The translations under genes and the position numbers were made by a program. Below are positions 3,009 through 34,014 of a stretch of DNA of 37,606 nucleotides, piece by piece; the stretch's first letter is position 1, and the number at the start of each line of letters is the position of its first letter. The DNA is taken from the NCBI GenBank assembly GCA_964469605.1, contig CAYXZA010000004.1:1-37606 (forward strand). Reading direction: 5' to 3'. Source of the stretch: an uncultured Candidatus Saccharibacteria bacterium. Lineage in GTDB: Bacteria > Patescibacteriota > Minisyncoccia > Phycocordibacterales > DATDWN01. The notes under the pieces were generated by a model. That model worked only from the letters and a program-made list of their open reading frames with translations. It was not told the DNA's origin and made no database searches.

Positions 3009-4250
3009 ATGAGACAAAGCAAACTTTTTACTAAAACAAGAAAAGAGGCACCAAAAGACGAGGTGTCAAAAAATGCAGAACTTCTTATTCGTGCAGGATT
3101 TGTTTACAAAGTAATGGCTGGTGTATATGCCTATACACCACTTGGATTTCGTGTTATTGAAAAAATAAAACATATAGTGCGTAAAGAGATGGATGCGGTT
3201 GGAGGGCAAGAACTTATTATGACAAATCTTCAAAGAAAGGATACATGGGAAAGTACTAATCGTTGGAGTGACTCTTCTGTTGATGTGTGGTTTAAGACAT
3301 CATTACAAGATGGAACCCCTATTGGACTTGCATGGAGTCACGAAGAAGCAATTATGGAAATGATGCAGCATTTTATAAGTAGCTATAAAGATTTGCCTAT
3401 AAGTGTTTATCAATTTCAAATTAAACTTCGTAATGAATTACGTACAAAAAGCGGTATTATGCGAGGAAGAGAGTTTTTAATGAAAGATATGTATTCACTT
3501 CATGCTACAAAAGAAGATATGGATCAATTTTATGATAAAGTAATTGAGGCATATAAAAAGATATATAACCAACTTGGTATAGGAGAAGATACATTTGTTA
3601 CATTTGCAAGTGGAGGTGCATTTACAAAATTTAGTCACGAATTTCAAACAATTTGTCCTGCAGGTGAAGATAAATTATATATAAATCAAAACAAGACAAT
3701 TGCTGTTAATGAAGAGGTTTTAGATGATGCAAGCAGAGAAATAGGCGTGGATAAAGAATCACTCACACCTGTTGTAAGTGCTGAAACTGGAAATATTTTT
3801 AAATTTGGTACTGATAAAAGTGAGAAGATGAAAATTTTTTATAAAGATATTGACGGCAATAATCAACCAGTATATTTGGCATCATATGGTATTGGTATTA
3901 CAAGAGTAATGGGTGTTATTGTGGAAAAGTATAGTGATGAAAAAGGTATCATTTGGCCAGAATCTGTTGCTCCGTTTAAAGTTCACCTGCTTTCTTTGGG
4001 AAATGATCCAAAAGTTTCTTTTGCCTGTGATGTTTTGTATGAAAAATTAAATAATCTGGGTATAGAAACTTTATACGATGACAGGGAAGTTAGAGCAGGA
4101 GAAAAATTTGCAGATAGTGACCTTTTAGGTATTCCTTGGAGGGTTATTGTCTCTGAAAAAAATCTTTCATCTGGCAAAATAGAAGTTAAAAAAAGAAACG
4201 AAGAAAATTCTACTATTATGGATGAGAGTGATTTTTTGAAGATTTTTTAA
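3009..4250 (+). CDS. proS: prolyl-tRNA synthetase, short form without the bacterial insertion/editing domain
   Basis: 413 aa. N-terminus KLFTKTRKE..ELLIRAGFV..GVYAYTPLGFRV is characteristic of ProRS. Class II core motifs present, and a C-terminal anticodon-binding-like domain. Confidence 0.85.
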   Translation: MRQSKLFTKTRKEAPKDEVSKNAELLIRAGFVYKVMAGVYAYTPLGFRVIEKIKHIVRKEMDAVGGQELIMTNLQRKDTWESTNRWSDSSVDVWFKTSLQDGTPIGLAWSHEEAIMEMMQHFISSYKDLPISVYQFQIKLRNELRTKSGIMRGREFLMKDMYSLHATKEDMDQFYDKVIEAYKKIYNQLGIGEDTFVTFASGGAFTKFSHEFQTICPAGEDKLYINQNKTIAVNEEVLDDASREIGVDKESLTPVVSAETGNIFKFGTDKSEKMKIFYKDIDGNNQPVYLASYGIGITRVMGVIVEKYSDEKGIIWPESVAPFKVHLLSLGNDPKVSFACDVLYEKLNNLGIETLYDDREVRAGEKFADSDLLGIPWRVIVSEKNLSSGKIEVKKRNEENSTIMDESDFLKIF

Positions 4251-9765: not shown

Positions 9766-11085
9766 ATGTCTAAAAATGAAATGATCGAATTTGGTGTAAA
9801 TGAAAATCCTGAAGGTGAAGTGGCGGATGGTAATTTTTTATCTAAATTTTTAGAAAAAACAAGAAAAATAAAGACGAGAGTTGTAAATTTATTGAGAAAT
9901 ACTGATATTTCAGATCGACAAAGAGAAGAATCTCAATTTTTTCTGGATTTAGTAGAATTGTCTGGAAGATTTTTTTATCTAACAACAAAAAAAATTTCTA
10001 GAACATTAATTTTGGCATCAATTTTTTATAATCCTGTAGTTTCAGGACAAGAGATGAGTAGGGATAATCCTCAAAGGGTAGCTTATAAAAGTTTTGAGGA
10101 TTTTCAAAGATACATAAATGAAAATAATGATCCTTACATATCAGAAAAAGAGAAAAAAGAAATTGAAAAATTGATAAAATCAATAGATACTCTTAAAAAG
10201 ACACTAGATAGATATAAAAATGAAAATACAGAGAAAAGTTTAGAAGAATACAAATTTCTTCTTGGTGTTTGTGAAGATTTAGATAATTCATTAAAAGATT
10301 TATCTAAAAAAACAATAGAAAAAATGGTTGAAGATGCAAAAACCGTCACTTTTGATGATTTTAAAAAAGATATTGAAAATGTGTTTACAGATAAATGGAA
10401 AATAATTGATGATATAAGATCTATTATTATAAAAAGATTAGGATCAGATCAATATAGAGAAATGGCAATAAAAGAAGGGTTGAGTTTGGAAGAAATAGAG
10501 AGAAGGATAGAGGTTGTTAGTTCTGATAATATACGATTTGAAGATTATTTTCATCCAGTTGATAATCCTCGTAAACTCGGGTTTTATCTTGCAGGAGATG
10601 CAGAAAGAAAATTTGGCTCACATCCTGGAAAAGTTATACTTTCAATAAGAACAGAAAATCCTCAATTAAAAGGTGTTGTTGTTCACGAACTAACTCATTC
10701 TTTTGTTGATGATAATGGTCAGTTAAAATTATCTAAATTAGCAATGGATATATATAGTGATGCAACAATGCCATATAATTATTTTGTTGTTGGAAATAAA
10801 AGATTTGATATAAGCCCTGAACATTTAAAATATTTATCTGAACCAAATGAGCTAAATGCAAGAAGAGTAGCTTTTCAATTTGAAATAGAAAAAATGGGTA
10901 TATGGAAATACGGAGAAACTTTTACAGAAGAACATTATAAAAAAATAATGGATTTTTCTAATCAAGAAAAATTTTCAGATTCTACTGTTGAATTTATTAC
11001 TATTGTAAAAAAAGAGAAGTTATTTCAAATGATGAATCTGTTAGCTTCAAATATAAAAACTGGTGATGGAGTTTTAGATGTATAA
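9766..11085 (+). CDS. hypothetical protein with a coiled-coil N-terminal half and an HExxH zinc-metallopeptidase-like motif
   Basis: VVVHELTHSF motif at about residue 300. K/E-rich N-terminal region predicted coiled coil. No family recognised. Confidence 0.55.
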   Translation: MSKNEMIEFGVNENPEGEVADGNFLSKFLEKTRKIKTRVVNLLRNTDISDRQREESQFFLDLVELSGRFFYLTTKKISRTLILASIFYNPVVSGQEMSRDNPQRVAYKSFEDFQRYINENNDPYISEKEKKEIEKLIKSIDTLKKTLDRYKNENTEKSLEEYKFLLGVCEDLDNSLKDLSKKTIEKMVEDAKTVTFDDFKKDIENVFTDKWKIIDDIRSIIIKRLGSDQYREMAIKEGLSLEEIERRIEVVSSDNIRFEDYFHPVDNPRKLGFYLAGDAERKFGSHPGKVILSIRTENPQLKGVVVHELTHSFVDDNGQLKLSKLAMDIYSDATMPYNYFVVGNKRFDISPEHLKYLSEPNELNARRVAFQFEIEKMGIWKYGETFTEEHYKKIMDFSNQEKFSDSTVEFITIVKKEKLFQMMNLLASNIKTGDGVLDV

Positions 11086-16823: not shown

Positions 16824-18002
16824 TTATTTTCCTCTATTTCTTCTAAGAAAAGCTGGAACAGCACCCCACTCATCGTCCTCTTCAACAGCGACATTTTTCT
16901 TTTCTTCTTCCGGTTTTGCTGTATTTACATTTACAGGAATAGAATTGTAAATTCTAGTATCCTCTTCTTTTTCTCTTTCTCTTGTAACAAATGTTTCTTT
17001 TTTAACCTCTTTTACTTCATCTGGGAAAATAGACTTTTTCTGGTTTTGATCTGCAAAATTTGAAGCAATAACAGTTATCTTAACCTCTCCTTTTTTAAGT
17101 GACTCGTCTCTAAATGCTCCAAATATAATCTTTGCATTTGGATCCGCAGACTCTGTTATTATTTTAGCAGCATCTTGTATTTCAAACATTGTAAGATCAT
17201 CTCCACCTGCAATAGAGAACAGAACACCTTTTGCTCCATTCATTGAAACTTCCAAAAGAGGGGAGTTAATAGCCATTCTAGCTGCTTCTTCTGCTCTTTT
17301 TTCACCTGTTGAATATCCTATACCCATAAGAGCAGGCCCAGCATTGTGCATAACAGCTCTGATGTCAGCGAAGTCTATATTTATAATACCAGGAGTTGTT
17401 ATGAGATCTGATATACCAACAACAGCTTGTTTTAAAATATCATCACACATACCAAAAGCATTTTTAGCTGTGGTTTCTTTGCTTATTGTTGAAAGTAGTC
17501 TGTCGTTTGGAATAACTATGATAGCATCAACAGCTTGACGAAGTTCATCTAGTCCACCTTCTGCAAGTCTCATCCTTTGTTGACCTTCAAAAAAGAAAGG
17601 TTTTGTAACAACGGCCACAGTTAAGGCATTCATTTCTTTTGCTATACGGGCGATTATAGGAGAAGCACCAGTTCCTGTCCCACCACCAAGTCCTCCTGCT
17701 ATAAAAACCATATCAGCACCCTTTATAGCTTCTTGTATTTCTTCTTTTGTCTCTTCAACAGCTCTTTTTCCAAGCTCTGGGTTCATACCAGTTCCAAGAC
17801 CTCTTGTTAGATTCTTACCTATGTGTATTTTTTTCTTTGCAAGAGAATGATGAAGATCTTGAGAATCAGTATTTACAGCAATAAAGTCAACTCCTTTGAC
17901 TTTGCTGTTTATCATATGGTTCAAAGCATTTTTTCCAGAACCACCAACTCCGACAACTTTGATTCTTGCAAATGCTTCTACTTCTGGTTTTATTTGTGGC
18001 AT
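16824..18002 (-). CDS. ftsZ: cell division GTPase FtsZ
   Basis: GGGTGTG tubulin signature, NTD..IGVGGGG, T7 loop region. Charged, repetitive C-terminal tail. Confidence 0.95.
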   Translation of the reverse strand: MPQIKPEVEAFARIKVVGVGGSGKNALNHMINSKVKGVDFIAVNTDSQDLHHSLAKKKIHIGKNLTRGLGTGMNPELGKRAVEETKEEIQEAIKGADMVFIAGGLGGGTGTGASPIIARIAKEMNALTVAVVTKPFFFEGQQRMRLAEGGLDELRQAVDAIIVIPNDRLLSTISKETTAKNAFGMCDDILKQAVVGISDLITTPGIINIDFADIRAVMHNAGPALMGIGYSTGEKRAEEAARMAINSPLLEVSMNGAKGVLFSIAGGDDLTMFEIQDAAKIITESADPNAKIIFGAFRDESLKKGEVKITVIASNFADQNQKKSIFPDEVKEVKKETFVTREREKEEDTRIYNSIPVNVNTAKPEEEKKNVAVEEDDEWGAVPAFLRRNRGK

Positions 18003-18098: not shown

Positions 18099-19274
18099 TT
18101 ATGGTAGAAATTGTTTAAACCAAGATATTATAGGTTTAATTTTAGAAAATATATTTTTTGATGAATTGTTTTTATTTTCAAAGCCGTTTAGACCAATAAC
18201 AGTTAGTCCATAAGCAACAGACCAAGTTGAATCTATGACTTTACCTTTTTCATTTATATTTATATTTGCGATCCTAGATGGTAAACGGAGAGTTGCTCTG
18301 GCTAGATCCTCTATTGTTGCAATATTTGAACCTCCTCCTGTTATAAATATTCCTGCTGGTAAAATAGCATTTTTACCTATCTTTTTTAGATGATTTTCTA
18401 TAACTTCAAACATATCATACACTCTGGCTTGTATAATCTCGTCTAGTTTTTTCTTTGAAACATTTGTTTGAGTCAAGACACCTTTTTTAATATTTTCAGC
18501 CTCTTCTATTGAAACTTTTAGACCCAAAGCAATATCATTTGTAACATCCGATGCACCTATTGGAAAAACTTCTAGTGAAATCGGATTATTATCCTCAAAG
18601 ACAACCACTGAAACTGTTTCAGCACCAATATTTACAAGAACACAACCTGCTATTTTTTGACTTTTTGTCAATACAACAGTTGATGCAACGATAGGTGAAG
18701 CTAAGACATCAATAACTGAAATACCACAACTTTCAACAGCTTCAACTATGTCTATAAAATGCTGTTCAATACAGGTAACATAAAGACATTTGACTTCCAA
18801 TTTTGTTCCTTTCATAGAAAGAGGAGTATTTCCTAAAACAGTCTTGCCATCGATTTTATAATGAAGGGGAACTGTGTGCAGTATTTTTCTATTTTGGATA
18901 TAAACTTTATCAATATTTTCTTCAGCTGACTCAAAAGCTCTGTTTATATCTAAATCTGTTATTTCAAGATCAGCTCTGGATATAATACTGTTCCCAGAAG
19001 AAAAGAAAGATTGCAAACCCTCACCTCCAATAGAAACAAGAGCTTCATTTATTTTGAAACCTATCATTTTCTCAGCCTTAGAAACGGCTGTCATAACACT
19101 GTCTCTGACATCTTCTGTGTTTATAATATAGCCATGACGAAGACCTTTTGATTCTGCTAGGGTATTTGCCAATATTTTAAAATTCTTTTTAGAATTTTCA
19201 TATACGAGTTCAGAGACAACCACTTTAACTTGGTATGTTCCGATATCTATGCCAACTTTAATATCTCTGGACAT
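18099..19274 (-). CDS. ftsA: cell division protein FtsA
   Basis: Actin-like ATPase motifs (GIDIGT, ITGGGS) and gene order ftsA then ftsZ. Confidence 0.9.
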   Translation of the reverse strand: MSRDIKVGIDIGTYQVKVVVSELVYENSKKNFKILANTLAESKGLRHGYIINTEDVRDSVMTAVSKAEKMIGFKINEALVSIGGEGLQSFFSSGNSIISRADLEITDLDINRAFESAEENIDKVYIQNRKILHTVPLHYKIDGKTVLGNTPLSMKGTKLEVKCLYVTCIEQHFIDIVEAVESCGISVIDVLASPIVASTVVLTKSQKIAGCVLVNIGAETVSVVVFEDNNPISLEVFPIGASDVTNDIALGLKVSIEEAENIKKGVLTQTNVSKKKLDEIIQARVYDMFEVIENHLKKIGKNAILPAGIFITGGGSNIATIEDLARATLRLPSRIANININEKGKVIDSTWSVAYGLTVIGLNGFENKNNSSKNIFSKIKPIISWFKQFLP

Positions 19275-19305: not shown

Positions 19306-19698
19306 TTATTTCCTTCTTTCAAAAAATTTTGAAAAAAATTTATCTTCTAATTCTTCCATTGTACTACTATGTTCCATTCCTTTCAAATGAAGCAAACCGT
19401 GGATAAATAAAAAACCAACAAATTCTTTAAAATTTTTATTAAATAAATGAGCTTGTCTTTTGGCTTTTTGTGAAGTTATAAATATTTCTCCTTCGTTTTT
19501 AGATATAGGAAAAGATAATATATTTGCAACTTTATTTTTATCTCTGTATTTTTTATTTAAATTTTTTGACCTTCTTTCACCAATAAAAACCAAAGATAGA
19601 TTGTATTTTGACCCCAAAATCTCATTTTTAATAACTTCAAAAGGTAGATCAAAAACCTTTGTTTTTGTAAAATTAGATATATTGAAAAAATCAGACAT
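19306..19698 (-). CDS. ybeY: endoribonuclease YbeY
   Basis: HGLLHLKGMEH matches the H3xH5xH metal-binding motif. 130 aa. Confidence 0.85.
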   Translation of the reverse strand: MSDFFNISNFTKTKVFDLPFEVIKNEILGSKYNLSLVFIGERRSKNLNKKYRDKNKVANILSFPISKNEGEIFITSQKAKRQAHLFNKNFKEFVGFLFIHGLLHLKGMEHSSTMEELEDKFFSKFFERRK

Positions 19699-19935
19699 TT
19701 ATCTCTTTGAAACTTCTTTTAATTTTCCTTCTTTTATAAGAGATTCTCTCTCAGTTCTTTTTGATAGGACTTTTAAAGCTTTTTTCTTTCTAACATATTT
19801 TGAAAGCTGTCTTGAAGCATATCTTATACTTCTTAGACGAGGCAAAACACCAGAACTTTGAACTTTCTTAGTAAATCGTCTCAATATTGAAAGGTTGTTT
19901 TCGGCACCGTTTTTTGTTATTTCAAGATTTATCAT
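19699..19935 (-). CDS. rpsU: 30S ribosomal protein S21
   Basis: RFTKKVQSSGVL..RYASRQLSKYVRKKKALK: basic, S21-like. The likely start is the Met of MINLEI at 19935; the ORF track extends to 19953. Confidence 0.75.
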   Translation of the reverse strand: MINLEITKNGAENNLSILRRFTKKVQSSGVLPRLRSIRYASRQLSKYVRKKKALKVLSKRTERESLIKEGKLKEVSKR

Positions 19936-19979
19936 AGGTTTACATATTATCACAAATAGAAATTTATATCAAGGAAGAT

Positions 19980-21206
19980 TTAAAGGTTTTTAAGATGTTT
20001 TGCCAGATGCTCTATCGAGACATTTTGTTGTTCTCTGATATCAACAGATCTAACTATTACAGAATTATCAACTGCTTCTTTTTGACCGATTATTAAAATA
20101 TGAGAAACTTTCAGATTTTCAGCATAATTTACCTGACTTGTTATCTTGTCTTTTGTTAAAGAGTGCAATACTGGTATTTTTTCTTTTCTCAATTTTTCTA
20201 TAACATTTAAAACTTTTAGTTTGGCCAGATTTCCTATTTGCATTATGTAAAACTTTGGTTTAGAAATTTTTGATAAAACAATTTTTTTATCTTTAACTTT
20301 TTTGTTGTAATAGACAGTAGCACCAAAACAAGGAACATCTTTTTTGTAACCAATTTTTTTCGCTAAGTAGTTATATCGTCCACCTTCGGCAAGTAAAAAT
20401 CTTTCATCTCCCTTTTTACCACTAACAGTCTCATATATTTTGAATACAAAATGAGAACCATAATTTTTATTTGGTATAAGAGAATTGTTTATAAAATAAG
20501 GAACAGAAAATACATCTAGAAACTCCAAAACTTCTGTTAGGTAGATTCTGCTTTGTTCTGTTAAACAACTGATAGGTGTTGGAACAGTTAGATCATCTGG
20601 AATATCTTGCTGGTTTTCAAGTAAAGAAAAAGGATTGTTTTTTATCTTTTGTTTTAAAGTTTTACTGAAACTCCCACTGTTTTTCTTTATAAAAGAAGAG
20701 ATATCTTTTTCAAATTTAGAAAAAGACTCTTTGTCACCGACACAATTTACCTCTATTGATAAGTTAGAATGTCCGTAGTCTTCTAGTATGGCCAAAGCTG
20801 TTTTTATAACCAAAGCTTCAGCTAGTGTCTTATTTGTTCCAAAAACCTCCAATCCGCATACACCAAAATTTTTAGAAGAAGATGGTTTTTTGAAATAAAA
20901 CATAGAAGGGTTTGATGATTTGGAAAGCCCTGACTCTTCATAAAATCTCAAAAGGGAAATTCTTTCCATAGCCTGATCTTTGTTTATATTCTGATCTTTT
21001 ATTGCTTTAAATTTTAATTCATCTTCTTTTGTTGGTTTTATATTGAAAACAGGATTAAAACCAAAATGAAAAGCAACTGAACCAGATAAATCAACTTCGT
21101 CTAATTTTACAGACTTTAAATCAAAAAATTTATTTTGACTACTATCTGTTTTCTTTTCCATCTCTTTTTCCGTATCTATTTTTTTTTCTTTTTTATTTTT
21201 TTTCAT
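19980..21206 (-). CDS. histidyl-tRNA synthetase-like class II aaRS paralog with degenerate catalytic motifs
   Basis: Aligns by eye to HisRS from motif 2 onward (EVNCVG~ELNSIG; GGRYNYL~GGRYDGL; PCFGATV~PAVGFAM) and has a C-terminal anticodon-binding domain. The motif-1 region is absent or replaced by a K/E-rich N-terminus. Motif-2 arginines are lost (FYFKKPSSSKNF). The RGLDYY histidine-binding motif is absent. Confidence 0.6.
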   Translation of the reverse strand: MKKNKKEKKIDTEKEMEKKTDSSQNKFFDLKSVKLDEVDLSGSVAFHFGFNPVFNIKPTKEDELKFKAIKDQNINKDQAMERISLLRFYEESGLSKSSNPSMFYFKKPSSSKNFGVCGLEVFGTNKTLAEALVIKTALAILEDYGHSNLSIEVNCVGDKESFSKFEKDISSFIKKNSGSFSKTLKQKIKNNPFSLLENQQDIPDDLTVPTPISCLTEQSRIYLTEVLEFLDVFSVPYFINNSLIPNKNYGSHFVFKIYETVSGKKGDERFLLAEGGRYNYLAKKIGYKKDVPCFGATVYYNKKVKDKKIVLSKISKPKFYIMQIGNLAKLKVLNVIEKLRKEKIPVLHSLTKDKITSQVNYAENLKVSHILIIGQKEAVDNSVIVRSVDIREQQNVSIEHLAKHLKNL

Positions 21207-21798
21207 CTTCTGTAAATAAGCCAGGATTTATGTCTATTTGTCCAACAGGAAGTAGTCTCGCAATAGGTTTACCTAAAACATCAAATCTCGGCACTGTTCC
21301 AAAATATCTAGAATCAAAACTATCTCTTCTGTTATCTCCCATAACAAAATATTCATCATTTTTTAAAGAAAAACTCATATTGTCTATCTTTGGCAACTTA
21401 ACATAATCTTCTGAAAGTTTAATCCCTTCAGGATTTTTATCGTTGTATATAGTTACAATACCGTCATTTATGACAATCTTTTCATTTGGCAAACCTATAA
21501 TTCTTTTTAGAAAATCCCTAGAAGTGTCGTTTGGATAAGCTAAGACAATAACATCAAATCTTTTTGGATCATTGAATTTGTATGATATTTTATCAACAAT
21601 AAGATAGTTTCCAGTTTGAAATGTTGGATACATAGAAGATCCTGAAACTATATAAGGTTCGGCTATAAATTTCCTAAAAGGCATAACAATACCCACAGCA
21701 ATAATGGCGAAAATTACAATCTCTTTTAAAATTTTCTTTAAGTTAGATTCTCTTTTTAAGTTACTATCTGTGTCGTTTGAGACAGGTATATTTTGCAT
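21193..21798 (-). CDS. lepB: signal peptidase I
   Basis: VSGSSMYPTF (catalytic Ser box), KRIIGLPNE (Lys box), MGDNRRDSFDSRYFG. Confidence 0.88.
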   Translation of the reverse strand: MQNIPVSNDTDSNLKRESNLKKILKEIVIFAIIAVGIVMPFRKFIAEPYIVSGSSMYPTFQTGNYLIVDKISYKFNDPKRFDVIVLAYPNDTSRDFLKRIIGLPNEKIVINDGIVTIYNDKNPEGIKLSEDYVKLPKIDNMSFSLKNDEYFVMGDNRRDSFDSRYFGTVPRFDVLGKPIARLLPVGQIDINPGLFTEDEKK

Positions 21799-23754: not shown

Positions 23755-25839
23755 TTAAAATATGTCTGCCAAAACATCTCCTATAAGGCTGTCCACGTCA
23801 ACACCTTTGCCATTTTGAAGATCTGTAATCTTATTAGCCAATTCTTTATGTAATTTTATTAAAACTTCGTCTTCAGTTGTTAAACTATCGCCAATAAATT
23901 CTTGACATAATTTATGCATTTTTATCTTTGCTCTAGATGTATTCCATAATTCTACATAAACAACAAGCCAATTTTTATTTGAAATTCCATCTCTTAAAGA
24001 TTTATACTGTGATTCAATATAACTTCTTAACCCTGTTATTATCCCCAATAATCTACTCGGATTATCTTTAGAATCAAGTGGCTCTACTCTTAACACTTCT
24101 TCTATTTCTCTAACTTTTTCCATTTGGACTGAAGCAATTTGTATGTGCATGCTTTTCAAGTTTAAAATTAAACTTTTTATTAAAGCCAAATCTTCTGTTA
24201 ATGCTCTGTGAGCCTCCGCTGTCATAATTCTTTGATTCTCAGCAGGATGTAAAGGTTTATTTGGTTTATCTATAGGCCTTGCTTCTCTTGGTTTTTCTGG
24301 CACTTTCGGTGGCTCAATATTTTCAACTGGACTCGCCATCCTTGCAAAAGCAGCCGCCATACTGCCAGATTGAACACTAAAACCAACTCTTGGAACATGC
24401 ACATCCCTCTCATTTTCTCTATCTATTTTTTCCAACTCATCTTTTATTTCTAAAAGATTTTTTTCTGCCCTGCTAAAATTCGGAGTTTGATTTGGCATAC
24501 AATACCCCCCTTTACCTTCTAAAATATCTTTAGCCTCAAGCCATTTTGTACTCAATTCTAAAAACCTTCCCTCAGTAATTATGCCTCGAGAATCAAAAAG
24601 ATTTGCTTTCAATTTTAGTGCCACAAGTTCACCAACTTCTGTTTTCAAAAGTAAAATCGCATCTCCTTCTAATGGCACACTATTAGGATTTCCATGCTCC
24701 ATAAAATACCAAAAATCGTCTTCTCTTTGTTTTAAAAATTGCTTTTTCTCTGAATCAACCTCTTCAGAAATTTTTCCTGTATTATCAAACTCTGGCTCTC
24801 CTCTAAATGCTTTATATAATTCAGCAATATGCATACTTGGACAATCAGCTCGTTCATATGAAATCCCCCACTTTTGGTTAGAGCTATAACCACATCTATC
24901 TTTTAAAAACTGTAAAGCTTGAGGGGATAAATTTCCAGACCAAGATTTCCAAGTTTTCCAATCACCAGTCAATAACCAAACAGCTTCTTGCTCTATATGT
25001 TCTTTATATTTTCTTTGACCTCCATAAAATTTAACTTTTTCTTCGTCGTGTATGAATGCAGTTAATTCTTTTTTATTTCTATTTGATAACTCTTCCGCAT
25101 GATACTCCCTTACAGTTTTACCTTTAGGATCACCTTGTCCCGGAAGTCTATTCCATTCATTGTCACCACCTAACACAGTATTTACTTTTTGTCTTTCTTC
25201 AACATATTTTGATAACTCATCCAAAAGTCCACCTTTAATATCTTTTAATAATTGAGCAGCGGAGCGAATATCAGGCTTGTTTTCAGTAACCGCTACCGTC
25301 CTTGCTGGACGCATGCCATCAGGCGATTCTCCAAAACTTTCCATAGAATTCCTTGTTATGTTTCCGCTTAATTGAATGTCCGGCATTCTACCTCTTTCCA
25401 TCTCTTTGCCTATTAAAAATAATTCACAGGTATCAGAAATTGGCTCAAATTTATTGGTTTTTATATTGTATCTTTCCCTTGGCTTATAAGCATAGCCTTT
25501 GGGAAGATCGTGGGCATTTTTTACCCCAACCCCATTAAGCCAAGTGCTTATAATACCTGCAAATTCATGAGCAAAAATCTGCACCTCTAAAGTATAACGT
25601 TCTGGTTCTTTTTCATATCTTCCAACCAAACTTTCAATACCCGCTTGCGGATTTTCTTGTTCTTTCATAAACCTCTTTACTACTGGATAATATATTTTAG
25701 AAATACTTGCATCTGATTGAAAAAATTCTCCTAAAGGCTGGTAATCTGGCTTACGAAAAAGTGTTTTTTCCGGTGAAGTAGGATTTTTTATATCTCCAGC
25801 ATTAAAAAAAGTATTTGATTCATTAAAAGGTCTGGACAT
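23755..25839 (-). CDS. large hypothetical protein (694 aa), Trp- and charge-rich, no recognisable family
   Basis: Long uninterrupted ORF. Noticeably higher GC than neighbouring genes. No motif known to me. Divergently arranged to the MBL-fold gene. Confidence 0.6.
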   Translation of the reverse strand: MSRPFNESNTFFNAGDIKNPTSPEKTLFRKPDYQPLGEFFQSDASISKIYYPVVKRFMKEQENPQAGIESLVGRYEKEPERYTLEVQIFAHEFAGIISTWLNGVGVKNAHDLPKGYAYKPRERYNIKTNKFEPISDTCELFLIGKEMERGRMPDIQLSGNITRNSMESFGESPDGMRPARTVAVTENKPDIRSAAQLLKDIKGGLLDELSKYVEERQKVNTVLGGDNEWNRLPGQGDPKGKTVREYHAEELSNRNKKELTAFIHDEEKVKFYGGQRKYKEHIEQEAVWLLTGDWKTWKSWSGNLSPQALQFLKDRCGYSSNQKWGISYERADCPSMHIAELYKAFRGEPEFDNTGKISEEVDSEKKQFLKQREDDFWYFMEHGNPNSVPLEGDAILLLKTEVGELVALKLKANLFDSRGIITEGRFLELSTKWLEAKDILEGKGGYCMPNQTPNFSRAEKNLLEIKDELEKIDRENERDVHVPRVGFSVQSGSMAAAFARMASPVENIEPPKVPEKPREARPIDKPNKPLHPAENQRIMTAEAHRALTEDLALIKSLILNLKSMHIQIASVQMEKVREIEEVLRVEPLDSKDNPSRLLGIITGLRSYIESQYKSLRDGISNKNWLVVYVELWNTSRAKIKMHKLCQEFIGDSLTTEDEVLIKLHKELANKITDLQNGKGVDVDSLIGDVLADIF

Positions 25840-30605: not shown

Positions 30606-31898
30606 ATGAGTAAATTTAAATTAGGAATCTTAATAGTCTTTGGTTTGTTTATAGTCATAGGTGTTATTGTTTTTGCATCAAGTAAAAATACCAACAACAC
30701 TTTTTCAGCAAATCTTGTAATGTGGGGGACAATAAACCAGTCAACAGCAAATGACTTTCTTTCAAGATTTGATTTTGATTCAAAAAAAGAACTGACTGTT
30801 ACATATATACAGAAAAAACCAGAAAATTTTGGAACTGAACTTGCAGAAGCTATTGCAGACGGCAATGGCCCTGACATACTTTTATTACCATCTGATATTA
30901 TTTTCAAACAAAAAAATAGAATATTAGAAATCCCTTACAAAAGTTATCCAGAGAGGACATACAAAGATACATTTATAGAGACATCTGAAATATTTTTAAA
31001 TAAAAACGGAATATTGGCTCTACCAGTCTTGATAGATCCACTTGTTATGTATTGGAACAGAGATATTTTTAGAGAAAAGTTAAAAACATCTCCTCCTTTG
31101 CATTGGGAAGAATTTCAAAATATAGCACCAGAATTTGTAGAGAAAGACAATTTAGGTAACATTAGAAAAACTTTTGTATCTTTTGGAGAATGGAGAAATG
31201 TATCAAACTCAAAGGAGATATTATCAAACTTGTTTTTACAAGTTGGAAACAATATAGTATCAAAAAACGAACTTGGTCTACAAAGTGACTTACTTGAAAA
31301 CAAAGGTCAAAATACAACACCAGCTATTTCTGCTGTAACATTTTATACCCAGTTTGCAAATCCAACTCAAAAAACATATTCTTGGAATAGATCTATGCCA
31401 AAATCACAAGAATTTTTCCTATCTGGTGATATGGCAATATATTTTGGTTTAGCATCTGAACTTTCTAGTATCAGATCTAAAAATCCAAATTTAAATTTTG
31501 ATCTAGCCCTTGTTCCACAAACAAAAACAGGTCAAAGTAAAGTTTTTGCAAGATTGTATGGACTATCTATATTAAAAAGTTCCAAATTTATCCCACACTC
31601 TTTTCAAGCTATAAATATAATGACATCTGGACAGCAGATTACTGCACTTGAAGAGATAACAGGTTTACCACCAGTTAGAAAAGATTTGCTTTCAAAAATA
31701 CCAACAGACTCATATAAATCTGTATTTTACAAGAGTGCAATATGGTCAAAAAATTTCATAGACACAGACGGACAAACCACAAATAGTATATTTCAAAATA
31801 TGATAGAATCTATAACATCAGGAAGGTCAAGTATTTATGAAGCAGTTAGTGGTGCAAATGATTCATTAAACGATCTTTTAAGTAAATATGGAAAATAA
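30606..31898 (+). CDS. membrane-anchored extracellular solute-binding protein (MalE/UgpB-like, SBP family 1)
   Basis: N-terminal TM anchor. LVMWGT..GPDILLLPSD..LVMYWNRDIF and overall 430-aa architecture typical of family-1 ABC substrate-binding proteins. No permease or ATPase genes are adjacent. Confidence 0.68.
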   Translation: MSKFKLGILIVFGLFIVIGVIVFASSKNTNNTFSANLVMWGTINQSTANDFLSRFDFDSKKELTVTYIQKKPENFGTELAEAIADGNGPDILLLPSDIIFKQKNRILEIPYKSYPERTYKDTFIETSEIFLNKNGILALPVLIDPLVMYWNRDIFREKLKTSPPLHWEEFQNIAPEFVEKDNLGNIRKTFVSFGEWRNVSNSKEILSNLFLQVGNNIVSKNELGLQSDLLENKGQNTTPAISAVTFYTQFANPTQKTYSWNRSMPKSQEFFLSGDMAIYFGLASELSSIRSKNPNLNFDLALVPQTKTGQSKVFARLYGLSILKSSKFIPHSFQAINIMTSGQQITALEEITGLPPVRKDLLSKIPTDSYKSVFYKSAIWSKNFIDTDGQTTNSIFQNMIESITSGRSSIYEAVSGANDSLNDLLSKYGK

Positions 31899-32271
31899 AA
31901 AATATAAAATATTCATACTCTTTTCTCTTTTGTTACCGACTACATTTCTACTAGCAGGAAGTGATCTTTATCCTTGCGATGGTCCAAATTGTGAATTTGG
32001 AGATATGGTAAAACTAGTTATTGCAATAGTAAACAGACTAACTACATATATTTTTATATTAAGTCCAATAATCATCGCTTGGGCTGGTTTTCACTATATA
32101 TGGAACATACAAAGTTCTGGAAAAAAAGAGGAGGCCAAAAAAATACTTCAAAACTTAGTTACAGGACTTGCCATAATACTGTTATCTTGGACAATAATAA
32201 CAGTTTTTTTAAGAGTCTTTGCAAACAACGAAGTATTGAAGATGTCGCCTATTAACCCTAACAAACCATAA
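31888..32271 (+). CDS. small secreted two-helix membrane protein, paralog 1 (VirB2/TrbC-pilin-like architecture)
   Basis: Sec-type signal peptide, CDGPNC pair, hydrophobic helix, charged loop (SSGKKEEAKK), second hydrophobic helix. Overlaps the SBP stop by 11 nt. Confidence 0.55.
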   Translation: MENKKYKIFILFSLLLPTTFLLAGSDLYPCDGPNCEFGDMVKLVIAIVNRLTTYIFILSPIIIAWAGFHYIWNIQSSGKKEEAKKILQNLVTGLAIILLSWTIITVFLRVFANNEVLKMSPINPNKP

Positions 32272-32678
32272 TGAAAAACAAACAATACATCAAAATATTT
32301 TTAATATTTACTATACTATTTTTAAGTAACTTTTCTTTAGTTTTGAGTGGTCAACAAAGTGTTGATTCAGGAGGTGGATCTATAGCAAATCTAGATATAA
32401 ACATTCCAAATCCACTGAAAGGTGGTGCAAAGAGTATACCGGAAATAGTAACCTTAGTATTAGATTCTATTGTTATACCACTAGGCTCTGTTGTTATTGT
32501 TTTGGCTATTATATATTCTGGATGGAAGTTTATAATGGCACAAGGTAACAGTGCAGACATACAAAAACAAAAAGAAAACTTAAAATGGGTTGTTGTAGGT
32601 TCAGCTATTATACTTGGAGCAAAAGCTATATCACTAGCAATCAATTCAACAATATCACAAATCAGCATATTCAAATGA
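32271..32678 (+). CDS. small secreted two-helix membrane protein, paralog 2
   Basis: Signal peptide, Gly-rich linker, helix 1 ending AQG, charged loop NSADIQKQKENLKW, helix 2. Start overlaps the previous stop. Confidence 0.55.
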   Translation: MKNKQYIKIFLIFTILFLSNFSLVLSGQQSVDSGGGSIANLDINIPNPLKGGAKSIPEIVTLVLDSIVIPLGSVVIVLAIIYSGWKFIMAQGNSADIQKQKENLKWVVVGSAIILGAKAISLAINSTISQISIFK

Positions 32679-33010
32679 AAAAAATTATCTTAACATCTTT
32701 ATTTTTTCTGATTCCAACACTTGTTTTTGCATTTCCTGCAAACTTGGGTGATTTTATAAAACTACTTTTGAGTTTGATAGACATAATAATACCCATAATG
32801 TCCGGTTTTATAATGATTATCTTTTTTTACGGAACAGCTCTTTTTATCCTAGCACAAGGTGACATAGTAAAAACACAAACAGGAAAAAGTTTTATGTTAT
32901 GGTCAGTTCTAGGCATATTTCTATTGGTATCTCTTTGGGGTATAATACAAGTCATGTCAAACGAACTTGATTTTGGACAAATTAGAAGACCAACATTACC
33001 AACAAATTAA
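32675..33010 (+). CDS. small secreted two-helix membrane protein, paralog 3
   Basis: MKKIILTSLFFLIPTLVFA signal peptide. FYGTALFILAQGD-loop-KSFMLWSVLGIF...LWGIIQVMSNELDFG. ATGA start/stop overlap with paralog 2. Confidence 0.6.
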   Translation: MKKIILTSLFFLIPTLVFAFPANLGDFIKLLLSLIDIIIPIMSGFIMIIFFYGTALFILAQGDIVKTQTGKSFMLWSVLGIFLLVSLWGIIQVMSNELDFGQIRRPTLPTN

Positions 33011-33011
33011 A

Positions 33012-33488
33012 ATGAAAAAAATATATTATTTTACAACAATATTTACAATACTTTTTTTACCACAAGTTTCAAATGCCGCTCTTTCTGGCATAAAAGGACT
33101 TTTACTAGATGTTAAAAGTATAGTCGGAAATCTGATACCAATAGCATTTGGACTAGCTATTGTTGCATTTTTCTTTGGTATTGCAAAATTCATATATGAA
33201 GCAGGAAATCCAGAAAGTAAAAATAAAAACAAAGCTATTATATACTGGGGAGTTATTGCAATAGCTGTAATGGCATCTATTTGGGGTATAGTAGGATTAC
33301 TCCAAAATATTTTTGGTGTAGATAAAATGGTTGGAAATCGTCAGGGTCCACCAACTACAGATGTATCATCTAATGTCTCTTTTCCATCAAATGACACTGG
33401 TGGAGGAGGTGGTACAAGAGATCAAGATTTAAGTTCAGATGGTGGAGATGGAGGTGATACATATAATGATATTTTTAATACTTTTTAG
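33012..33488 (+). CDS. small secreted two-helix membrane protein, paralog 4, with Gly/Asp-rich C-terminal tail
   Basis: Signal peptide ...VSNA. FFGIAKFIYEAGNPESKNKNKAIIYWGVIAIAVMASIWGIVGLLQNIFGV. Tail GGGGGTRDQDLSSDGGDGGD. Confidence 0.6.
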   Translation: MKKIYYFTTIFTILFLPQVSNAALSGIKGLLLDVKSIVGNLIPIAFGLAIVAFFFGIAKFIYEAGNPESKNKNKAIIYWGVIAIAVMASIWGIVGLLQNIFGVDKMVGNRQGPPTTDVSSNVSFPSNDTGGGGGTRDQDLSSDGGDGGDTYNDIFNTF

Positions 33489-33592
33489 TTATAACTATAA
33501 AAAATTTTTTCAAATTATAGACTTTAAATTATCCACTTATTTATAAATAAAAAATTGCTGTTATCTTATTTTTGTTATAAAATATATACATT

Positions 33593-33607
33593 GGTCACTT
33601 GGCTTTT
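33593..33607. repeat. short repeated motif ggtcacttggctt, copy 2 (upstream of pilin-like paralog 5)
   Basis: 13-mer identical to 8034-8046. Lies in the 160-bp gap between paralogs 4 and 5. Confidence 0.5.
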
Positions 33608-33648
33608 CAAATGACAAATAAAATAAATTATTAATAAATTATTAAATT

Positions 33649-34014
33649 ATGAAAAAAATTGTATATACAATCCTTTCCCTAAGCCCAGCACTTACACTGG
33701 CAGCAGAAGGTACTTTTAATGTTGGTTATTTTGATAATATACTAGATCTGATAAAAAGAATAACAAAAGCTGGAGTTCCAATACTTTTTGCAGCAGCTGT
33801 TATTATATTTTTCTATACAATATTGAGATATATATTGGCAGCCGGAGAAAAACCAGAAGATGCTTCTAAAAGAAGAGGTGCTATTGTTTGGAGTCTTATA
33901 GCCATAGCTGTAATGGCATCTGTTTGGGGTCTTGTGGCTTTCTTGCAAAACATTTTTGGTGTGTCTTCTACCGGTGGCACAAATATCAACCCACCAACAA
34001 TTAATGGTCTATAA
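33649..34014 (+). CDS. small secreted two-helix membrane protein, paralog 5
   Basis: Signal peptide ...TLA. FYTILRYILAAGEKPEDASKRRGAIVWSLIAIAVMASVWGLVAFLQNIFGV, near-identical to paralog 4 over the second helix. Confidence 0.6.
   Translation: MKKIVYTILSLSPALTLAAEGTFNVGYFDNILDLIKRITKAGVPILFAAAVIIFFYTILRYILAAGEKPEDASKRRGAIVWSLIAIAVMASVWGLVAFLQNIFGVSSTGGTNINPPTINGL

Follow-up and report, generated by a model that had tools for sequence, protein, structure and literature searches.

Is a gene that sits where hisS should be, and whose product has the fold of histidyl-tRNA synthetase (HisRS) with few of its catalytic residues, still a synthetase, a paralog of one, or something else? The question is raised by a 37,606-nucleotide stretch of DNA (here called the window; a Patescibacteria/Parcubacteria fragment with a GC content of ~30%) from an uncultured Candidatus Saccharibacteria bacterium (contig CAYXZA010000004.1 of assembly GCA_964469605.1), in which an open reading frame (ORF) of 408 amino acids occupies exactly positions 19980..21206 of the minus strand. 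An earlier sequence-only reading, made without database searches, took it for a HisRS paralog with degenerate catalytic motifs, perhaps similar to HisZ, or, should no other hisS-like gene exist, for an unusually divergent enzyme. The gene is instead the positional ortholog of hisS, in a Parcubacteria clade made up of Zambryskibacteria and relatives. It appears to have exchanged catalysis for some other task, and the reading that we hold with moderate confidence is that its product is a non-catalytic, tRNA-His-binding pseudo-synthetase, with charging carried out by another enzyme encoded elsewhere. The gene itself is as follows:

19980..21206, minus strand: hisS positional ortholog, degenerate HisRS-fold protein of 408 amino acids (stop codon 19980..19982)

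Homology to HisRS, together with a class II anticodon-binding domain, had been proposed by eye and is borne out by every search. Pfam finds tRNA-synt_His (8.9e-7, residues 109-300) and HGTP_anticodon (1e-11, residues 321-407) in this stand-alone protein, and no further domain beyond these HisRS-type ones. A single-sequence phmmer search retrieves Staphylococcus aureus HisRS (1qe0) at 1.7e-18 and Escherichia coli HisRS at ~3e-12, and a profile of 44 family members, whose alignment has 30 invariant columns, matches 1qe0 at 6.7e-45 from HisRS residue 63 onward. The motif pairs matched by eye (GGRYNYL with GGRYxGL, EVNCVG with xxNSxG, PCFGATV with GFAxxx) are the very pairs that HMMER aligns. An AlphaFold2 model on the family alignment has a predicted local distance difference test score (pLDDT) of 90.6 and a predicted template modelling score (pTM) of 0.88; the HisRS fold and the C-terminal HGTP anticodon-binding domain are both present, and true HisRS is nearer to the protein than HisZ is, in sequence and in structure. 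Judged by sequence, it lies outside the HisRS equivalog family, since its score, motif 2, motif 3, HisA loop and TXE segment all fail: with the TIGR00442 hisS model it reaches 113.8 bits, where the cutoff is 286.75, and only profile positions 120-405 are matched. Relatives are numerous. A word-indexed search found at least 207, of about 380-430 amino acids, and an exhaustive HMMER search, run over 1.84 billion cluster representatives, yielded 300 clusters (50% identity) at E<1e-30. The Prokaryotic Genome Annotation Pipeline (PGAP) names them [quoted passage not shown], and the Joint Genome Institute (JGI) and the original metagenome-assembled genome (MAG) submissions "histidyl-tRNA synthetase" or "Histidine-tRNA ligase".

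The state of the active site was judged by scoring 13 catalytic or substrate-binding positions (E. coli numbering: the TXE Arg, Glu and Thr, R113, R121, R123, Q127, E131, R259, Y263, Y264, the HisB Arg and R311) on 388 sequences aligned with MAFFT, among them a set of canonical HisRS from the Candidate Phyla Radiation (CPR) retrieved with P0240 as bait. The outcome is sharply bimodal: 118 of the 119 canonical CPR sequences have all 13 residues, the degenerate group (~270 sequences) has 0-7 of them with a mode of 3, and nearly none fall between the groups. The window protein keeps three, namely E131 (its E120), Y263 (Y249) and the HisB Arg (R277). From the N-terminus onward it is built as follows:

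21123..21206, minus strand: residues 1-28, Lys/Glu-rich variable tail, predicted to be disordered (pLDDT <50 for residues 1-4 and 8-25 and nowhere else) and unalignable across the family
21027..21089, minus strand: residues ~40-60, helix and motif-1-like strand SVAFHFGFNPVFNIKP, the presumed dimer interface, aligning with canonical EIALYYGFKPIETP
20838..20906, minus strand: residues 101-123, degenerate motif-2 hairpin SMFYFKKPSSSKNFGVCGLEVFG, its fRxE strand and Arg-rich loop deleted or replaced
20502..20759, minus strand: residues ~150-235, HisRS insertion domain, moderately conserved with canonical CPR HisRS (37% identity, canonical to degenerate)
20439..20480, minus strand: residues 243-256, degenerate HisA loop LIPNKNYGSHFVFK in place of LVRGLDYYTRTVFE, with R259 changed to Pro and Y264 to Gly
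20358..20390, minus strand: residues 273-283, HisB motif AEGGRYNYLAK retained (R277 invariant, Y278 and N279 nearly so)
20298..20330, minus strand: residues 293-303, degenerate motif 3 CFGATVYYNKK, its Gly kept and its catalytic Arg changed to Lys302
19983..20258, minus strand: residues 317-408, class IIa (HGTP) anticodon-binding domain (PF03129, 1e-11), the best conserved part

The damage is heaviest in motif 2. There the aligned window protein reads "SMFYFKKP----------SSSKNFGVCGLEVFG", the fRxE strand and Arg-rich loop of the canonical enzymes having been deleted; the protein is ~10 residues shorter than canonical at this hairpin, and E120 is the sole residue kept. R113, Glu115, R121/R123 and Q127, invariant in the 119 canonical CPR enzymes, are absent from the window protein and from 125/125 close family members. 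To our knowledge, the motif-2 Arg is invariant in all active class II synthetases. PNKNYG stands at the HisA loop and AMERIS at the TXE (LRPEGT) segment; R259, a catalytic residue specific to HisRS, is Pro245 here and S, P or G in the family, and the T85 position is K or R. The absence of the motif-2 arginines and of the RGLDYY loop, already recognised by eye, thus holds family-wide, and the motif-3 Arg joins the list of losses: the R311 position is Arg in 119/119 canonical sequences and Lys in 118/125 close family members, including Lys302 of the window protein. What persists in the close family is the GGRYN HisB motif with an invariant R277, and E120 in 116 of 125 members; in the wider degenerate group the E131 position is E, D or H, and that of R311 is K, R, S, D or a gap. 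It had been allowed at the outset that the catalytic residues might be present but shifted, in a divergent but ordinary HisRS. Neither hmmalign, nor MAFFT with the 388 sequences, nor a hand check of the register of the motif-2 hairpin places an Arg at R113, R259 or R311. AT bias was considered as the source of the Arg-to-Lys changes and rejected, as even the Arg-rich degenerate members have R113 in 0/26 and R259 in 1/26 cases.

At the N-terminus the sequence-only reading needs to be amended. It held that the motif-1 region had been replaced by a Lys/Glu-rich tail, but residues ~40-60 align with the canonical motif-1 strand, with G49 and F50 invariant in the family and the motif-1 Pro present in 115/125 close members; what has gone relative to canonical enzymes is the KGMRD motif and a ~25-residue segment, "TDIVxKEMYxL...LRPEGT". 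The tail itself is real, but it is no distinguishing mark, as canonical CPR HisRS also begins with a Lys-rich tail. Further along, the insertion-domain consensus INSxGD...HFKEVLExLE...PY is common to canonical and degenerate proteins, and so are anticodon-binding domain invariants that include GQKEA, VR and R..Q.

One further feature of the insertion domain may be recorded here. In canonical CPR HisRS (loci L003, 8001-9389, and L007, 8001-9311, among others) it contains six Cys (CxxC...C....C plus LCxxC), which are possibly a metal site; all six are gone in the degenerate proteins of Zambryskibacteria type and partly kept in the basal degenerate loci L014 and L089.

Selection still maintains this gene. 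Against L093, the closest relative with available DNA (74% amino acid identity), its ratio of nonsynonymous to synonymous substitution rates (dN/dS) is 0.12, with 0.16 for the catalytic-like part and 0.04 for the anticodon-binding domain. The same genome pair gives 0.05 for rpsA, 0.07 for ftsA and for the small bS21-like ORF described below, 0.08 for Lactamase_B, 0.14 for lepB, 0.16 for pth and 0.20 for ybeY. Because its dN/dS is on par with those of its housekeeping neighbors (0.05-0.20), the gene is not decaying; it is maintained under purifying selection as strong as theirs. The distribution of constraint along the protein has changed, however. In canonical CPR HisRS no part is better conserved than the segment from TXE to motif 2 (75% identity), in the degenerate proteins none is conserved less (31%), and the catalytic motif regions are 25-27% identical between the two groups. 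The insertion domain stands at 37-41%, and the anticodon-binding domain is 50% identical within the degenerate group and also between degenerate and canonical proteins. These identities indicate that constraint has shifted away from the catalytic motifs and onto the anticodon-binding and insertion domains.

The position of the gene identifies its origin. Its immediate neighbors in the window are the following:

21193..21798, minus strand: lepB, signal peptidase I (TIGR02227, 2.1e-37)
19699..19953, minus strand: small ORF directly downstream, bS21/rpsU-like by eye only, its position conserved in relatives
19306..19698, minus strand: ybeY (TIGR00043, 1.5e-22)
18099..19274, minus strand: ftsA (from ORF and translation; Pfam labels in relatives)
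16824..18002, minus strand: ftsZ (from ORF and translation; Pfam labels in relatives)

The 3' end of lepB overlaps the start of the hisS-like gene by 14 nucleotides, and the same-strand run downstream (bS21-like ORF, ybeY, ftsA, ftsZ) is the same as that which follows canonical hisS; the gene is probably co-expressed with all of these. The lepB, ybeY, ftsA and ftsZ assignments of the sequence-only reading stand. Its rpsU remains an assignment by eye, the small ORF having no Pfam or NCBIfam match at E<=1e-3. A relative that is 39% identical to the window protein, P0127, has the same neighborhood as the window (gyrA, Lactamase_B, rpsA, pth, lepB, the gene in question, the small ORF, ybeY, ftsA, ftsZ and trxB), and in other Parcubacteria a canonical hisS occupies exactly this slot (P0310, on a 412-kb contig of GCA_016180525.1; P0395, of GCA_041657405.1; and P0368). 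GTDB species genomes were then scanned with a single anticodon-binding domain pattern common to both forms, which gave 519 confirmed loci. The best 80 of these come from 80 different assemblies and comprise 71 canonical and 9 degenerate genes; 79 are informative, one being too short to judge, and all 79 lie directly after pth (minus strand) and lepB (plus strand), canonical and degenerate alike. On the further contigs outside this set, lepB is again directly upstream. None of these 80 loci contains two HisRS-like regions. The lepB-[x]-rpsU-ybeY-ftsA-ftsZ position is therefore the ancestral hisS position in Parcubacteria, and because the two forms occupy the same slot and never both, the gene is a hisS ortholog that degenerated in place. 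The description of it as a paralog embedded in the cluster must accordingly be given up.

Intermediate stages of this change appear to survive. P0260 and P0196, whose genes likewise follow lepB directly, are without motif 2 and R259 but still possess the N-terminal GxRD, an LRPE-like segment and the motif-3 Arg; P0237 is a further intermediate. In a neighbor-joining tree of GyrA plus RpsA (28 taxa, 1187 columns) the eight degenerate-bearing genomes form a single clade, the loss of catalytic residues is common to the whole clade, and hisS probably changed in place once, in an ancestor of that clade. L007, L051 and L065 are canonical sister lineages.

The GTDB loci contain another variant. In 56 of the 80 (L012-L088), an otherwise canonical CPR HisRS has Asp for Glu at position 131, within the signature RETRRRQDRYYRR. 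Most of these loci are named Nomurabacteria, Paceibacterota or "uncultured Candidatus Saccharibacteria", and genes other than small ORF-ybeY-ftsA-ftsZ lie downstream (def-fmt in the one examined, P0368).

What might such a protein do? It retains the architecture of HisRS (motif-1 dimer strand, class II core, insertion domain and anticodon-binding domain) and is without the residues by which all class II synthetases, HisRS especially, bind ATP and activate the amino acid, here histidine (the motif-2 Arg, the motif-3 Arg, now Lys, Arg259 and Tyr264 of HisA, the TXE segment and Gln127). Formation of histidyl-adenylate should thus be impossible for it. tRNA-His would still be bound, the anticodon-binding domain holding the anticodon and the insertion domain, with the basic, Lys-rich motif-2 loop, holding the acceptor end, and the protein would be a non-catalytic tRNA-His-binding factor: a sensor, a chaperone, a sequestering protein or a non-catalytic partner of another enzyme. 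The histidine content of GyrA, RpsA, Pth and FtsA is equal in degenerate-bearing and canonical genomes, and the His motif of YbeY is intact in the window. Because histidine is used normally in the clade, tRNA-His must, on this reading, be charged by another enzyme. The likeliest candidate would be a non-orthologous HisRS gained by horizontal transfer and encoded at another locus; once it was present, the resident hisS would no longer have been held to catalysis and would have been kept for a non-catalytic role related to tRNA-His.

Several points weigh against this account. Although an acquired non-orthologous HisRS is the most economical model, that xenolog is postulated throughout, and the binding of tRNA-His is read from domain conservation only. 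No second HisRS is present in the 37.6-kb window, where all ORFs of >=100 amino acids were scanned, or in any of about 90 fetched loci. Likewise, none of the 71 canonical CPR-type copies among the best 80 of 519 loci lies outside the pth-lepB slot, a count that bears on a second copy of CPR type and says nothing about a xenolog of another type. No contig carries both forms among 120 degenerate and 120 canonical proteins, although this non-overlap is uninformative because the two are alternatives at one locus. Then there are the basic residues of the former active site, conserved in the close family: K or R at the T85 position in 121/125 members, the Lys at R311 in 118/125, "YKKP", the Lys-rich motif-2 loop, and a Lys two residues past the R259 position. 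Such a constellation might mean that the pocket still binds an anionic ligand, and residual or altered chemistry may be compatible with it. Finally, the GyrA plus RpsA tree is without support values, and the dS values that underlie the dN/dS ratios (0.8-1.8) are near saturation.

That the degenerate gene is the only HisRS-like gene of the clade is unlikely but deserves to be kept in mind. Also unlikely is the corresponding picture of a clade without canonical HisRS, in which either the protein charges tRNA-His without the canonical arginines, or charging follows a non-homologous or host-supplied route and the old synthetase is kept as a tRNA-His binder.

A more specific version would have the protein be the sole, still active HisRS, its active site rebuilt around lysines, perhaps with different chemistry, in the absence of the class II arginines. 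Its place in the hisS slot with no other HisRS in the DNA examined, its housekeeping-level purifying selection, the normal use of histidine, the survival of E131 and the HisB Arg-Tyr, which belong to the histidine pocket, and the conserved basic residues that in the close family replace T85 and R311 and flank R259 and the motif-2 positions are all what one would expect of such an enzyme. Against this, the motif-2 Arg and R259 are both gone, the window protein has lost the fRxE strand and loop altogether, and conservation is lowest in the former catalytic segment; a re-engineered site should show a conserved replacement set, and none is conserved across the wider degenerate group. An active enzyme of this kind therefore seems distinctly unlikely.

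Very unlikely is a duplication of a CPR-type hisS, the second possibility of the sequence-only reading, with the canonical copy persisting at another locus of the genome. HisZ did arise in this way, by duplication and subsequent loss of catalysis, but here there is one locus per genome in the 80 GTDB species (the best 80 of 519 matches to a single pattern), every informative one in the lepB slot, and the canonical and degenerate lists share no contig; moreover, if every degenerate-bearing genome had such a copy, about one in nine of the canonical loci would be expected outside the slot, where 0/71 are found.

It is highly improbable that the gene is a dead hisS in decay, its function already gone. 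Catalytic residues are indeed missing, and evolution of the catalytic segments is faster than that of their counterparts in canonical HisRS, but an intact ORF of about 380-430 amino acids persists across 300 or more clusters (50% identity), with 30 invariant columns and a confident AlphaFold2 model, in genomes that are otherwise strongly reduced, and dN/dS, low and housekeeping-like even in the catalytic-like part (0.16), leads us to reject a pseudogene.

A HisZ-like regulatory subunit of ATP phosphoribosyltransferase in histidine biosynthesis, as the sequence-only reading had envisaged, is scarcely credible: the protein does share with HisZ a HisRS-derived core without catalytic residues, and it has weak NCBIfam HisZ matches, but these fall far under their cutoffs (TIGR00443, 26.7 against 271.65; NF008942, 38.2 against 643), true HisRS is the nearer relative, the strongly conserved anticodon-binding domain has no obvious role in HisG regulation, the gene is by position hisS, about 90 loci show neither hisG nor any other his gene within +/-10 kb, and CPR bacteria are generally without amino acid biosynthesis.

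Among known systems, the natural standard is bacterial HisRS (hisS, TIGR00442; PDB 1qe0, 4e51, 1kmm and 4rdx), in particular the CPR/Parcubacteria type (P0310, P0395), found in the same genomic slot in 71 GTDB species and on three other contigs. The degenerate protein shares with it an anticodon-binding domain that is 50% identical, the insertion-domain consensus, the HisB motif, E131 and the motif-3 Gly; it differs in having Lys for the motif-3 Arg, in being about 30-50 residues shorter, and in being without the motif-2 Arg and Glu, the Arg-rich loop, Gln127, HisA Arg259/Tyr264, TXE and the N-terminal GxRD. HisZ (PDB 1z7m, 1usy, 3od1 and 5m8h) is likewise a HisRS-like core without adenylation residues, but it is a genuine paralog, found alongside hisS and linked to hisG or other his genes, and has no dependence on an anticodon-binding domain, whereas the degenerate protein is a hisS ortholog by position with that domain highly conserved, no his genes nearby and no passing score with the HisZ models. 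The HisRS-like domain of GCN2 (PDB 8t7t, 9bf3 and 9cbs) is among the structural matches and may offer the nearest functional analogy, a degenerate HisRS core with an anticodon-binding-like domain being common to both. GCN2 is eukaryotic, however, and its domain lies within a large kinase that supplies the output, while the present protein, from a bacterium, stands alone without an effector domain and is the ortholog of a working enzyme and not an ancient fusion. Binding of uncharged tRNA, a mark of the GCN2-type domain, would be predicted for it from the conservation of its anticodon-binding and insertion domains. Pol gamma B (POLG2; PDB 5c53 and 8d33) is similar in being a dimeric pseudo-enzyme derived from a class IIa aminoacyl-tRNA synthetase, with an anticodon-binding-like domain kept for work related to nucleic acid. 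No description of a degenerate hisS family, or of a missing HisRS in CPR, was found in the literature, and a 2022 review of aminoacyl-tRNA synthetase duplications gives HisZ as the sole HisRS-derived protein.

The rest of the window bears on regulation and gene content. There are no Rfam matches to a T-box or other leader RNA, and promoter-like and terminator-like sites occur at the rate expected by chance. Nowhere in the 37.6 kb is there a tRNA gene, nor does any Rfam family reach the gathering threshold, and a tRNA-His gene is absent from the window and from the loci scanned for tRNAs. The second class II aminoacyl-tRNA synthetase gene in the window (3009..4250, plus strand), a candidate for another hisS, proved to be proS. 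Its product is just 413 amino acids long; because bacterial ProRS models match it in two stretches only (residues 1-241 and the C-terminus), it appears to be without the INS editing domain. Between rpsA and Lactamase_B_3, an ORF of 694 amino acids (23755..25839, minus strand) has no Pfam, NCBIfam, PADLOC or PHROGs match and looks like a lineage-specific insertion, because the relatives L001 and L093 have no gene at this place. At 31888..34014 (plus strand), downstream of a solute-binding protein gene, are four tandem small ORFs (121-173 amino acids) with weak matches to type IV secretion system (T4SS) pilin / TrbC-VirB2. An ORF of 439 amino acids (9766..11085, plus strand) has no Pfam, NCBIfam or PADLOC match; its sole match is a marginal one to a PHROG tape-measure protein (E 1.2e-4, residues 132-220), which probably reflects composition or a coiled coil.

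Pseudo-enzymes derived from synthetases are as a rule additional copies or parts of fusion proteins; HisZ, the GCN2 HisRS-like domain and POLG2 are examples. What is unusual here is that the resident ortholog of an essential synthetase would itself have been converted, clade-wide and under housekeeping-level selection, in genomes that shed nearly everything dispensable. Because JGI and MAG submissions label the family histidyl-tRNA synthetase, automated surveys of CPR completeness and metabolism may be counting a dead enzyme as HisRS. The finding raises the questions of what charges tRNA-His in this clade and what purpose a stand-alone tRNA-His-binding pseudo-synthetase would serve. If the charging enzyme is a xenolog, the clade would show cleanly, in nature, how one enzyme displaces another in its function and the displaced gene then takes up a new role; should there be no other charging enzyme, the rules for class II catalysis, or the autonomy of these symbionts, would need to be revisited.

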